64,000 nucleotides of DNA from Escherichia coli (GTDB taxonomy: Bacteria; Pseudomonadota; Gammaproteobacteria; Enterobacterales; Enterobacteriaceae), in NCBI RefSeq assembly GCF_011045215.1, contig NZ_CP049201.1; one strand, given 5' to 3'. Position numbers: made by a program. How positions within the stretch are numbered: position 1 is the stretch's first letter; every line of letters begins with the position of its first letter. This document shows, in pieces, positions 27,001 to 33,000 of the stretch.

Positions 27001-30000
27001 TGCTCCGGCTGGCTGTGGGCTTACGTCAGCGGAGAAAGAAGCGGTCCGCCGGTCGTCTGTTTTGACTCGCAGACCGGACGGGCCCTCAGATATCCTGAGG
27101 CCTGGCTGCAGGGCTGGCGTGGTGGCACGCTGGTGAGTGACGGATACAGCGTGTACAAATCTCTGGCGGATAATGACCCCGGTATTACATCTGCCTGTTG
27201 CTGGAGCCACGCAAGACGCGGCTTCGCCAGTCTGTATAAGGCCAGCAGGGAGCCCCGTGCAGCCATGGCGCTGAGAAAAATCGCGGGTCTTTATCGCATT
27301 GAGAAGTTCATCCGTGAACGTCCTGTGGAAAAAATACGGCAATGGCGACAACGGTATTCCCGGCCGATAGTGAATGACCTGTTTGCCTGGCTTGAAGAGC
27401 AGGAGCCGTGCTGTCCGCCCGACGGACCACTAAACAAAGCGATTAATTATATCCTGAACCGGCGCGATGAACTGAGCTGCTTCCTGGGTGACGGAGCCGT
27501 GCCCCTGGACAACAATATCTGCGAGCGTGCTATCCGCCCGGTCGTTATGGGACGAAAGGCCTGGTTGTTCGCCGGTTCACTGATGGCCGGAAACCGCGCG
27601 GCACAGATAATGAGCCTTCTGGAAACGGCAAAACGTAATGGTCTGGAGCCACATGCCTGGCTGACAGACGTCCTGGCGCGTCTGCCGGAATGGCCAGAGG
27701 AGCGACTGGCAGAGTTGCTGCCCCTTGAGGGATTTACCTTCTCCGGGTGAGTGATACCTGTCGTCAGGTGTTCTTGCAGCGTGCCATAATCTGCAGTCGG
27801 GAGTTGAACGCCTGACGACAGGAAATGAGCCAGGCCAGCCACCACGCGGGCTGACAGCGAATCAGAACCTGAGTCAGCCCGGAGCCATTCCCGGGGCTGT
27901 ACTTCATCACCTGCCACCAGTACCCGTGTCAGTACTTCGCGACCTGACGCAATTACCCGACTCAGTTCTTCAGAACCCGCCTCCGATACCAGCCTGGCGC
28001 TCGCCCCTGCGCAAGCAAAATAAATCAACCATTGTCAGACTGCGATCATTCGTATGCACCGCCGATGACGCGCCCGAAAACGCGTCAATATGAGTTCGCC
28101 GGAATATTACAGTTCGCCGGAATATTACGGCTCTCTTTCCGGTCGTCAGCTTTCTGAATTCGATAAAGAAACTTGATTAACGATGATCGATTTTGTCGAT
28201 CGATTCGATCGATTTTTCTCTTTTTACCCTGTCTTTTGCATGGTTTTAAAATAAGCAACCCCGTTCATTGTTCGGGGAAAGTGATAGCGGAGATAACTGA
28301 AATGAAAAAGATTATTGCGGTTTCAGCGCTTGCTGTGGTGGGCGTATTTTCAGTCCAGGCTCTGGCAGATGAGAGCAAAACCGGTTTTTATGTGACCGGT
28401 AAGGCCGGGGCTTCTGTTGTGACTCAGACTGACCAGCGCTTTAGTCAGGACTTTGGGGATGATGTTTATAAGTATAAGGGGGGCAATAAAAACGATACCG
28501 TATTCGGTGCCGGCCTTGCGGTGGGCTATGATTTTTATCAACGTTACAACGTTCCTGTACGTACGGAACTGGAACTCTATGGCCGCGGAGCTGCGGACTC
28601 CCGCTATACACTGGATACGTGGCACTCTCCGATGGGCGATGGTGGTCGGGAAGACGCGCAGAACAGGCTCAGTGTGAATACCCTGATGGTGAACACGTAT
28701 TATGATTTCAGAAACAACAGTGCATTTACTCCATGGGTATCTGTTGGGGTGGGTTATGCACGGGTACATCATAAAGCGACATATACTGATACTTCCTGGA
28801 ATAAATCTGGTGAGGTAAGTGATATTTCTGCGTTACATTATTCGGGATATGATAACAACTTCGCATGGAGCATTGGGGCCGGTGTTCGCTATGACGTAAC
28901 CCCGGACATCGCTCTGGGCCTCAGCTATCGCTATCTGGATGCTGGTAAATCCTCCCTGTCTTACAAGGAGGCTGAAGGGGATAAATATAAATCAGAGGCT
29001 GACGTTAAAAGTCACGACATTATGTTTGGTATAACATACAGCTTCTGACAGTAATATCCACCTTTGCTAACAGTTTACAATGCTCAGGTGGATGTATTTC
29101 TTGGAATGCAGTTCATTACAAATATGTTATCCTCCAGATAGAATAGATAAGTGCTGATGATTATAATGTTCTGTGCATATCTGTATTTAAGTTAATGTAC
29201 CGTCTTTATAAGAAAAAATATGCTTGTTAAAATAATTATGCATTAAAGCTGAGTGTTTATGTGAACAAAGTTATGGATTGTCTGTAAATAATGAAAAACA
29301 AGAGCGACACAATGCAAAATATAAATATTTTTATCAGAGATAATGTCTGCAAAATTTCCAATAATCCAGACAAAAACCTTCATGTAGCCCCTGATATCCC
29401 AGATAAAAAGCTCAATAATATTGCAAAGTCAATGAATCTTCAGGATGATTACAATTATATAATCGCATTATTAGACAGTTCTCTTCTGGGTAATGGTAAA
29501 GAGGGGGTGGCATTTACAGGTGAACGCATGGTGTATAAGACTGGTCCTTTTACATCACCAAACACTATATATTTTGGCGAAATAGAAACTGTCGAATATG
29601 TCCAGAACAGAATAATTAATAATAAAGGTAAAGAAAAAATTGAAAAACATGTCTCTCTTATACTAAAAGATGGCTGTTCATATAAAATTGAAAGCATTGG
29701 TGAATGTAACCTTGAAAAATTAGCTGATTTTCTGAAGGCTATCATTGAGCAGTTTGATTCTTTCGGGAAAGATAATCAACTTATTTCGCTGTCTGAGATG
29801 TCTGAAGAGCTCAAAGTTGCATACATAAAAGTCGTAATTAATATGGTTTACTTTAATAATAGTAAACCTGGTGAGAAGTCACTGTCTGAAATACAATTGT
29901 TAATGACACGTCTGGAACTTAATTCTGAGTCCCGTTTTGTTATTCGGGAGTATTTGTTTTCAGAGAATGAAAGGGATAATCTGGAATCTCTGATACAAAC

Positions 30001-33000
30001 AATAGATAAGGAGTGTATTCCCTCTCATAATGAAAGTGTAATATTCTCACTAGTAAAAGATCTTTACAGTGTGTTTATGAGTATGAACAATGGGGACCAT
30101 GATGGTTTTGTATTTTTTGAAGATAACAGACTTCTTTTTAAAATTAGTGATGAAAAAGTCAGGGTAATTCTGGAGGCTCTCGAAATCGACTTTAAGATGC
30201 TTAAAGGTGATGTTAACGATGATACTCTTACTCGCTATATTAAAGAGCTTAGTGCCAAAGCGGGGGCCGTTGGTGTTCCTCTCGCAGCAGTTTACCTTTC
30301 AGGTTCAGTTGTCGGGATGTCAGCTGCAGGATTAACATCCGGACTGGCAACGCTTGGTCTGGGAGGGCTTTTAGGGTTCTCCAGTATGGCTACAGGGATT
30401 GGCGTTGCTGTGTTAATTGGTGTGGGAACCTATAAAGGTATCAGACAATTAACAGGGGCGAATGGGCTGGATAAAATCAAGCGGCGGGAGATGATGCTGA
30501 ATGAAGTTATCAAACTAACGCAATTAACTATTTCTTATTTAATTGAGGATATTAATTTTATCGTTATCAAATTAAATGAGTGTATTAATAATATTGAACA
30601 GCAGGAAGAAAAATTTAAAAAACTTATGGAGAAACAGAGAAAAACCATATTGGTTATGCGGGAGCTTCGGAAAAAAGGTGATGAATTACAAGGGGAAAAA
30701 TTCAAACTAAAATGCCCACTTGAGCCAGACAATGACAGACTTAAATTTCTGACCAGAGACGTAACAAAAAAACAAATTTATACTTTTATTTTGTCTTTTT
30801 ATGAAGAAAAAGACATTGAAGTTAAAAATGATGAAAAAACTGTAATCAGGAAAAGACTTGTTCGTAAGCCGGGTATCTCAACGTTAGAACTGGAAAAACT
30901 TTCTGATGCATTTGAGGCTATTGGATATTTCAATGCAATTGATGTCGCTAAAAGTAAATTACATGGAGTATTTTCATAATGTCTGAACGAGATGAACAGG
31001 CTGCAGCGCTACTGGTGCAGAAAGATCTACTATCCCGATCTGGAAATAAGCTGAATGAGCTAAATACCATCCTGAATACGTTGAAAGAAAAACAAGAATC
31101 CAGTGATAATCAGATTGATCATGCTCTGGCTGAGCTGGATATGATAATTGATGAGCAATGGTGCGATAAATGGGAAAACAGTGGTTCCGATATTGCTCTG
31201 GGTTTTGAGCATGAGGAAGAACAATCTGAGGTCAGTTCTGTTGTTGCCCCAGTTACATTACTTGATACATTCGATTTCAATGCAGAAATGAGCTGGTTTC
31301 AGTATCAACAGTCTGTTGAACGGTATGCAATTCATAACAACATTGATTTGGATGTTGAACCGTTCAGGACATTAATGTCTCCGCTACAGAGAACTGAATT
31401 AGAAAAGCGTATCAGGAATGAATTTACTGTCAGGAATGCTCAATGTGACAGATATGATTATCTCATTGCAGTTACTTGCGGTATCATTGGGGGAATTATA
31501 GATGCATGCTTTGTTGGATTACCCGGTAAAGGGAAACTTACACAATTTTCTGATAGTGCGGTAAATTCAGCCGTTGAGAAATTTGCATCGGTATGTGGGT
31601 GGAAAGGAGCCAAAGAAGGTAGTGATCCAACAAAAAGCGCAATTGGTTTTCTGGAAGGAAAATTTAAAATTAATTATGATCAGGCAACAACTTCAGGAAA
31701 AAATGGAACTGGTGGTGCAGTCAATAATCTTTCCCTAAAAAATCATCATTTAAAGAGTCTTGGACATTCTCCCGACCTTTGCGGTTTGTTCTTTTCAATT
31801 CTTAACCAGTTTACCAGTACATCTACTTTTGTTTCAAATGGTCGGATTATTACCATTGAAACTAAGGATTTCGAGTTGAAAGGTGGTAACTTCATCGCAA
31901 AACTCTATTGTGGTTTTGCCAACTGGTTGGGGCATTTATTCTCTGATATGGCTGGTTCTTCTGGCGCATCAGGGCGAGGGGCGGGAATACCGATCCCTTT
32001 TTACAATTTACTCCTGTTGATTGATGTCGGTGAATCTGGTCAACACAAACAATCTTTTGCCACCATAGCCACACAAGTTTTTGAAAAAGGCTATGATTTC
32101 AGGCACGGTATTGCACTGGCTATTCCTGTGCTCATTACTGAATTATTAACCCGGTTAATGTGGACATGTAAACAATGGTTATATCATAAAAAGCCCTTGA
32201 CTGAGTGTGTACCTGTAGAAAATGATCCGGAGTTAAGAAGAATGTTACTGATTGCTCATGGAACGCTCTGTATGATTGATGCTGGTGATGCAGCATTTAG
32301 ATCCGGTGGTAATTTGATGACGTTTCTGCTGAGAACTAATATGGTCGGCTGGGTTCGGTTTGGTATGCTTGCGTTAAAAGAAGTTCATGGGTTATACAAC
32401 ACAGGTCATATTGATGTTGATTCGGTTGATAAATATCTGGATACTGAATTAGAAAGATTATCATCTCATCTATACTAATCCCTCTGACAGGCCATTCTGC
32501 TATAAAGACATGGGATGAATGATAATGATTGTCGGCGCTTTTTTCACGAAGGAAAGGGTAGTGACAGCCAGGTTTACAATGTACCGCTGCATATGTGGCG
32601 GTTGACTATATCGGCTTCACGGTTTTCAGGATAAAGCATTAATCAGTAGTCCTGTATTAAGTATATCTGCCTCAGGCGAACATACTGTATTTTATAAATT
32701 TTTATGAAAAACAACCTTCTTTTTATATTCCTGTCGCGGATTAATAATGATAAAAGTATTGTGTTATCTGTGATTGTTTTTACGCTTGCTAATATGATTG
32801 TATCATCAGGTGCACATCTGATTTATCGGGTATTATTCTTTACCCTGACTCTCCTTATTATCAAGAAGATAAAGTTATTTACGCTGCGTTTGATTCTTGC
32901 TTTTCCGTTCACGTTACTGACTGCTGCAGATATCAGTATCAGCCTGTATTCATGGTGTACATTTGGCACAACATTTAATGATGGTTTTGCAATCAGTATC

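Follow-up and report, generated by a model that had tools for sequence, protein, structure and literature searches.

Bunzi belongs to the defence systems that Millman et al. 2022 reported; they named it and described BnzA as carrying a TerB domain, predicted transmembrane helices (Fig. 3A legend) and a lipid-interacting domain, speculating on 'membrane surveillance'; later papers repeat the TerB and membrane-surveillance idea and add no mechanism. Three E. coli CVM strains are given there as carriers (Table S18), and Payne et al. recorded one embedded Bunzi against 585 non-embedded homologues. Here we analysed a gene pair in the selC island of an Escherichia coli genome (NCBI RefSeq assembly GCF_011045215.1, contig NZ_CP049201.1), within a 64,000-nt stretch that we refer to as the window and whose first nucleotide is position 1. 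The pair is almost certainly an E. coli version of the Bunzi anti-phage genes, bnzA followed by bnzB. The PADLOC model of BnzA (PDLC03833) matched residues 8-562 of the first open reading frame (ORF) over model positions 1-544 of 544 (E 3.4e-188, 624.7 bits), and that of BnzB (PDLC03834) matched residues 4-496 of the second over positions 9-502 of 504 (E 2.5e-200, 664.9 bits). The original prediction, made from the sequence alone, had recognised no known family in either protein and had proposed an undescribed phage-defence or toxin-like membrane module. A defence-type module in variable island cargo is what we find, but not an undescribed one: both proteins are full-length homologues of a family characterised by phenotype, not by mechanism, and the pair is of an already known kind, named in 2022 and with its E. 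coli carriers catalogued. The profile searches suggested at that time returned nothing significant for either protein in Pfam or NCBIfam (Pfam likewise for all alignment members), whereas the PADLOC BnzA and BnzB models matched end to end; the PHROGs collection held no match for the pair, nor did PDB sequence-profile searches for either protein. Bunzi is detectable by PADLOC and DefenseFinder-type tools and has one positive assay.

Both ORFs lie on the + strand where they had been predicted, at 29291..30979 (562 aa) and 30979..32478 (499 aa). The start of bnzA is likely ATG 29312, Met8 of the 562-aa frame, because a Shine-Dalgarno-like AAGAG stands 7 nt upstream, database copies are 555 aa long and the PADLOC alignment begins at residue 8. 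We accordingly place bnzA, probably encoding a 555-aa membrane-anchored Bunzi subunit, at 29312..30979 and bnzB (499 aa), delimited by its ORF, the junction sequence and the PADLOC match, at 30979..32478. The junction, formerly described as an ATGA stop/start overlap, in fact reads TCA TAA TG: the stop TAA occupies 30977-30979 and the ATG 30979-30981, with a one-base overlap (TAATG). Translational coupling is still plausible given a GGAG 10 nt 5' of the bnzB ATG. Promoter and terminator scans yielded no excess over shuffled expectation. As anticipated, the pair sits in a sharply AT-rich block unlike its flanks: GC content is 0.30-0.43 in 500-bp windows across 29000-33499 and 0.53-0.59 in 26500-27999, and bnzAB averages 0.371 as compared with 0.522 on the core side of selC and 0.490 over the whole window. 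Low GC with insertion sequence (IS) elements alongside could point to chance open frames or decaying remnants in horizontally acquired DNA. We nonetheless give this reading a negligible probability and rule it out, since hundreds of full-length homologues exist, the frames are intact in other E. coli isolates over 9.4 kb at 99.97% identity, the AlphaFold2 (AF2) model of BnzB is confident, and ratios of nonsynonymous to synonymous substitution (dN/dS) are 0.30 for bnzA and 0.19 for bnzB against a second, 92-93% identical E. coli lineage. Judged by these ratios, both genes are shown to be under purifying selection.

The two genes also travel together. Among 44 genome loci encoding a BnzA relative, from Proteobacteria, Firmicutes, Nitrospira, Acidobacteria, Bacteroidetes, Actinomycetota and Cyanobacteria, 38 carry a BnzB homologue directly 3' on the same strand, which answers affirmatively the earlier question of whether the pair is conserved as such; the six exceptions are three contig ends and three distant partial matches. 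The BnzA family is broad in Gammaproteobacteria, and BnzB counts 1,071 representatives at the 50% clustering level (E <= 1e-3). BnzB-like genes were found in 3 of 50,697 phage records and in no PHROG. A BnzA copy identical to the window protein (P0001, 555 aa) occurs on E. coli contigs. The order tia-like outer-membrane protein gene, bnzA, bnzB, phosphoethanolamine (PEtN) transferase, tetratricopeptide-repeat (TPR) gene, integrase, selC is common to all eight places examined for it, and one such carrier is 99.97% identical to the window across 9.4 kb. In the second E. coli lineage (~92-93% DNA identity) the tia-bnzAB-PEtN-transferase block lies at pheV and pheU with other integrases. Since tia and the PEtN transferase are linked to bnzAB solely in E. 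coli, the A-B pair itself is the functional unit. A larger unit comprising all four genes was considered and rejected, the linkage being E. coli-specific and common to leoCBA, the operon discussed below. When 5,426 complete RefSeq E. coli genomes were searched by megablast and blastn, bnzAB was detected in none; this collection is without the known carrier CP057031, so that the zero count denotes rarity and not absence.

We then delimited the setting of the pair. As originally proposed, it is integrase-proximal cargo of a selC island: tRNA-Sec, the integration site, was located by ARAGORN at 37418..37512 (- strand), next to a yicH-selC-yicJ-yicI flank 98.6% identical to E. coli, and a P4-type tyrosine integrase is encoded at 35929..37119 (- strand; NF007246, E 1.4e-93; Pfam Arm-DNA-bind_3 and Phage_integrase on an identical protein). 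The window tia region (28159-29038) and all DNA between 32690 and selC share 88-99% identity with the selC islands of enterotoxigenic E. coli (ETEC) H10407 and of strain A37, in which leoC-leoB-leoA fills the same slot (NC_017633, locus L058, 3881-8723, in H10407). Because both sides match leoCBA-bearing islands with leoCBA in between, bnzAB replaces leoCBA there; a 3,651-bp bnzAB segment stands for a 4,843-bp leoCBA segment at the same breakpoints. The exchanged piece, bnzAB with its own 5' and 3' non-coding DNA, spans 29039..32689 (+) according to blastn breakpoints against NC_017633 and NZ_CP195776. On its left the slot is bordered by a gene for a tia-like outer-membrane beta-barrel (28302..29048, +; 88-90% DNA identity to annotated tia, Pfam OMP_b-brl on an identical protein) and on its right by a PEtN-transferase-family gene (32704..34308, +; NCBIfam P_eth_NH2_trans, E 1e-46, under the curated cut-off, and RefSeq annotation of homologues), followed by a TPR-repeat protein gene (34455..35498, -). 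The leoCBA genes match the PADLOC LeoC, LeoB and LeoA models, and the full segment occurs in 64 of the 5,426 complete E. coli genomes versus none for bnzAB. Collectively, these data mark bnzAB as an exchangeable cassette of 3.65 kb, housed in the defence slot that a Tia-type selC island has on its integrase-proximal side.

The AF2 model of BnzA (pLDDT, the predicted local distance difference test score, 74.9) divides the protein into four parts. The first is a beta-rich, PH-like N-terminal domain (residues 1-147; 29312..29752, +) with strands between 52 and 127 at pLDDT ~80-90. Foldseek aligned it with the PH domains of SSRP1, GRK2, Sin1 and EROS (probability 0.9-1.0, TM(target) ~0.5, weak E-values of 0.2-1), and it was the sole part of BnzA identified in the PDB by this means. 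Just 3' of bnzAB in a Pseudomonas metagenome-assembled genome (locus L013, 13361-14929), a 522-aa protein shares only this domain (positions 11-90 of the hidden Markov model, E 5e-20); the PH-like domain is hence modular. The second part is an all-helical domain (residues 148-312; 29753..30247, +; AF2 helices 165-319), the 'TerB' of the literature. Pfam TerB (PF05099) matched neither the window BnzA nor any of 51 members, and hhalign with TerB 2JXU gave a local match (E 0.017); as judged from these comparisons, the TerB assignment of window BnzA is a weak one. A TerB-style signature, (D/N)DGxhDxxE(F/Y), is clear in 66 of 69 BnzA relatives, including that of L. animalis.

The third part of BnzA (residues 317-374; 30260..30433, +) is a 58-residue Gly/Ala/Ser-rich stretch delimited by hydropathy and alignment, with Kyte-Doolittle maxima of 1.57 and 1.97 and Lys/Arg on both flanks. 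It forms a putative glycine-zipper hairpin of two predicted membrane helices, with both termini, as the basic flanks suggest, on the cytoplasmic side. This block is invariant in 51 homologues, and AF2 confidence is low over residues 329-383. Last come a long antiparallel helical hairpin (residues 385-467; helices 385-426 and 432-467) and a small C-terminal alpha/beta domain (residues 474-540; strands within 497-518, helix 524-537), together at 30464..30931 (+). The layout first drawn for this protein, with a long Gly-zipper hydrophobic segment and a coiled-coil C-terminus, is borne out.

BnzB was modelled with confidence (pLDDT 91): an N-terminal helix of 63 residues leads into a compact core, which is helical except for a single beta hairpin. 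The protein contains two strongly hydrophobic helices, in keeping with the N-terminal coiled coil and hydrophobic helices ascribed to it at the outset. Its conserved helical core (residues ~150-495; 31426..32463, +) was delimited from a 75-sequence alignment, from core-only and fused homologues and from the AF2 model. Across the alignment G168, H263, G269, W316, H319, S322, D323, G336 and N454 are invariant, and D160, D175, E226, D234, H256, H257, S260, R375 and D434 nearly so; the window protein retains every invariant and at least 85%-conserved column. PDB profile and structure searches revealed no solved structural relative of BnzB, known alpha-helical pore-forming toxins included; its structural neighbours in the AlphaFold database were all uncharacterised and none was informative, and Pfam found no informative fused domain in longer BnzB-core proteins.

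Reduced versions of the system, here called mini-Bunzi, occur on IncHI2A-type conjugative plasmids. On an IncHI2A plasmid of Salmonella Saintpaul (NZ_CP053056; locus L060, 6211-8101), a 165-aa Gly-zipper/coiled-coil membrane protein that matches just positions 301-414 of the BnzA model, that is, the hairpin and first coiled coil (E 1.6e-6), is followed after 5 nt by the gene for a 462-aa BnzB-core protein (BnzB match, E 6.5e-53). Of the plasmid records, 491 had BnzB-like matches, and 436 of these were conjugative; most were 200-440 kb in size and came from Enterobacter, Salmonella and Klebsiella, and all matches are annotated as hypothetical. In addition, two metagenomic proteins unite both halves in one chain: in P0206 (747 aa) the partner joined to the BnzB core is a Gly-rich membrane/coiled-coil module (PDC-M09A, E 2e-94), and P0246 (816 aa) carries the same parts in the opposite order. 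These fusions link the PADLOC candidate PDC-M09 to Bunzi. By Rosetta-stone logic, fusions and core-only pairs together argue that hairpin and BnzB core work as a minimal unit, to which the PH-like and TerB-like domains would be add-ons.

The plasmid-borne pairs also bear on a different interpretation, namely that the genes primarily form a selfish module for stabilisation of mobile elements or for competition, made up of a toxin-like membrane effector and a partner that controls it, with phage defence only incidental. The minimal version does reside on ~436 conjugative plasmids, mostly of IncHI2 size, beside HipA-type toxin-antitoxin and HNH genes, and the pair itself lies in integrase-borne islands among IS elements. 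However, Pfam and NCBIfam disclosed neither an antitoxin-like small partner nor an autoregulatory DNA-binding domain, Bunzi is not listed by Millman et al. among the systems with untransformable deletion mutants, and the L. animalis system protects against phage. We regard the selfish module as quite improbable.

As the best explanation overall, and with moderate confidence, we favour an E. coli Bunzi defence cassette in the selC slot that would act at the membrane. In the proposed mechanism, the PH-like and TerB-like cytoplasmic domains of BnzA would sense a phage-induced change of the inner membrane, as sensor or brake, and the Gly-zipper hairpin and the BnzB core would constitute a membrane-acting effector released or activated by them. 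Damage to the membrane by this effector might come either from chemistry at a His/Ser/Asp pocket of BnzB, with a lipid or envelope component as substrate, or from oligomerisation of the Gly zipper, and infection would be aborted as a result. The assignment of sensor and effector roles to the individual domains is tentative and somewhat more apt to be wrong than right. A more specific version, which we deem possible but rather doubtful, would make hairpin and BnzB core an unrecognised membrane enzyme or effector of new fold around H256/H257/H263/H319/S322/D323, with the E. coli lineage as a re-wired sensor variant, explaining the negative assay described below; if true, it would be the first account of how Bunzi, and with it a widespread relative borne on plasmids, works. 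The leads from this work are the Eleos slot swap, the mini-Bunzi pairs and fusions, the residues invariant in BnzB and the motif loss specific to E. coli; all but the first lend themselves to concrete, cheap mutational tests.

Outside E. coli, some neighbourhoods of the pair are suggestive of defence. In Pseudoalteromonas sp. T1lg48 (locus L004, 5320-18068) it is embedded in a BREX locus in the order PglX, a helicase/type IV restriction endonuclease-like gene, bnzA, bnzB, PglZ and BrxL; it adjoins a type I methyltransferase in Acinetobacter (L028) and PDC-S08 in Pseudomonas (L013).

Several observations, however, weigh against a defensive role of the window pair by the route just outlined. The placement in defence islands surmised earlier held for just 3 of 10 sampled non-E. 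coli loci, in which sampled neighbours included a recognised defence gene, the others having none. The L. animalis system (SG138, from Ligilactobacillus animalis DSM 20602; observed defence 'v' in Table S2 of Millman et al. 2022) is the sole Bunzi with observed defence: in the same table the E. coli CVM N34228PS system (SG139) is marked 'x', and a lactococcal Bunzi gave no protection either. Moreover, both E. coli lineages have lost the acidic signature of the helical domain, where NNSKPGEKS or NNGKPSEKT replaces DDGxVDxxE (window 29846-29884, residues 179-191; NNSKPGEKS in the window). The substitutions D183N, D187G/S and E190S/T fall on positions with an acidic residue in 66, 66 and 65 of 69 relatives, respectively. 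From these alignments, the E. coli Bunzi sensor may be altered or disabled, and the loss may be related to the negative SG139 assay. Sensor and effector roles could also be reversed. What mainly calls for caution is the negative assay, together with the missing acidic motif; the assay should not be over-read, given a limited phage panel and possible, inferred H-NS silencing of AT-rich DNA. We consider the odds that this E. coli copy defends against some phage to be only slightly better than even.

These same observations nourish the reading that E. coli Bunzi is repurposed or altered in its sensor and serves an envelope-related role, in membrane stress or virulence as first proposed for LeoA, within the tia/PEtN-transferase cassette. 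Its nearest relative, SG139, is without observed defence; neither lineage retains the acidic TerB-like triad that 66 of 69 relatives have; E. coli copies of the pair, be they at selC, pheV or pheU and with different integrases, are always accompanied by tia and the PEtN transferase; and purifying selection on both genes implies some function. Yet leoCBA shows the same association with tia and the PEtN transferase, which marks the association as a property of the slot rather than a sign of common function, and outside E. coli it is absent. BnzB further keeps all columns of at least 85% conservation, and the plaque assay is weak evidence, having relied on a limited panel and a native AT-rich promoter that may be silenced by H-NS. 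Repurposing thus appears unlikely to us, and the membrane-acting defence cassette is the reading that we retain.

Further features of the island were noted alongside. The PEtN-transferase gene bordering the slot scores far short of all NCBIfam cut-offs, those for EptA, CptA and MCR among them (at best 159.6 bits, where 500 are required), its H10407 homologue is annotated with a longer N-terminus, and we regard its product as a divergent member of that family. Left of tia, at 22877-27750, lie three IS transposase genes, of the IS4 (22877-24292, -), IS110 (25040-26059) and IS66 (26245-27750) families; other carriers of the identical cassette (L045, L047) have IS4/Tn5-like and IS21 elements there. 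The pheV/pheU versions (L053-L056) encode an H-NS-family paralogue of 157 aa ~800-1300 bp 5' of tia, where the window has IS elements. In the pheV island of E. coli GCA_013055545 (L054, 870-6034), a cluster of PRTase_2/TRSP, StiP/PELOTA_1, C-C_Bond_Lyase and DUF4236 genes precedes an 88% variant of the cassette; we take it to be the gene set that Anantharaman et al. 2012 associated with Ter, a curious find beside a TerB-labelled system. At 20631-22504 of the window, the gene for a 416-aa protein resembling phosphoadenosine phosphosulfate (PAPS) reductase (PADLOC BrxP, E 1e-7, weak; DndC, E 2e-4) overlaps the start of a 212-aa ORF without family match, and the two may represent another module of defence or DNA-modification type. 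The distal island (2389-10261 and 12607-14556) contains a chaperone-usher fimbrial operon, with the usher at 3728-6304, the chaperone at 6434-7165 and several subunits, as well as genes for a PgaB-like polysaccharide deacetylase and a GT4 glycosyltransferase. Because of these fimbrial and polysaccharide genes in its distal part, the selC island is a mosaic of adhesion, surface and defence cargo.

Compared with known systems, the window pair resembles that of L. animalis SG138 in gene order, domain layout, PADLOC families and length (546 and 487 aa), with 32% identity in BnzA (E 4e-39) and 29% in BnzB (E 4e-56) over the ~400 residues available; SG138 differs in its Gram-positive donor and in keeping a TerB-like motif, HDGKVETKEY, that is absent from window BnzA. 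Much closer is SG139, at 89% (BnzA) and 91% (BnzB) identity over the first 399 residues, whose BnzA motif is likewise degenerate (NNGKPSEKT) and whose cloned fragment begins at the same point as the window cassette, just 3' of tia. It nonetheless represents a distinct lineage (~92-93% DNA identity, synonymous divergence dS ~0.2) with copies at pheV and pheU instead of selC. PDC-M09 and mini-Bunzi have in common with Bunzi the Gly-zipper/coiled-coil membrane module, the BnzB core and adjacent co-directional genes, but unlike BnzA are devoid of PH-like, TerB-like and C-terminal domains. The tellurite-resistance Ter cluster found no counterpart here, with no Pfam or NCBIfam TerB match and with tia, PEtN transferase, TPR protein and integrase genes as neighbours. 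Shango (the TerB protein SngA with a helicase and an ATPase) and Dionysus (the TerB protein DinB) are grouped with Bunzi in the literature as TerB 'membrane surveillance' systems; they have other partner proteins, and the TerB assignment of window BnzA fared weakly in our tests. Lastly, Eleos/LeoABC is like Bunzi a membrane-associated defence family of Millman et al. 2022 and occupies the same tia/PEtN-transferase slot, but has a dynamin-type GTPase, whereas Pfam detects no GTPase domain in the Bunzi pair. A marginal LeoBC match to the BnzA hairpin (E 0.0015, no domain over threshold) was dismissed as a sign of real kinship, being probably compositional Gly-rich similarity. Millman et al. 2022 found a homologous dynamin operon to be anti-phage, tied phages AR9 and PBS1 to the dynamin system in their text and noted the earlier virulence interpretation. 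The exchange of bnzAB for leoCBA delimits a small, well-bounded slot for defence genes within the classical Tia pathogenicity island of ETEC, and argues that genes once read there as virulence factors are immunity cargo.

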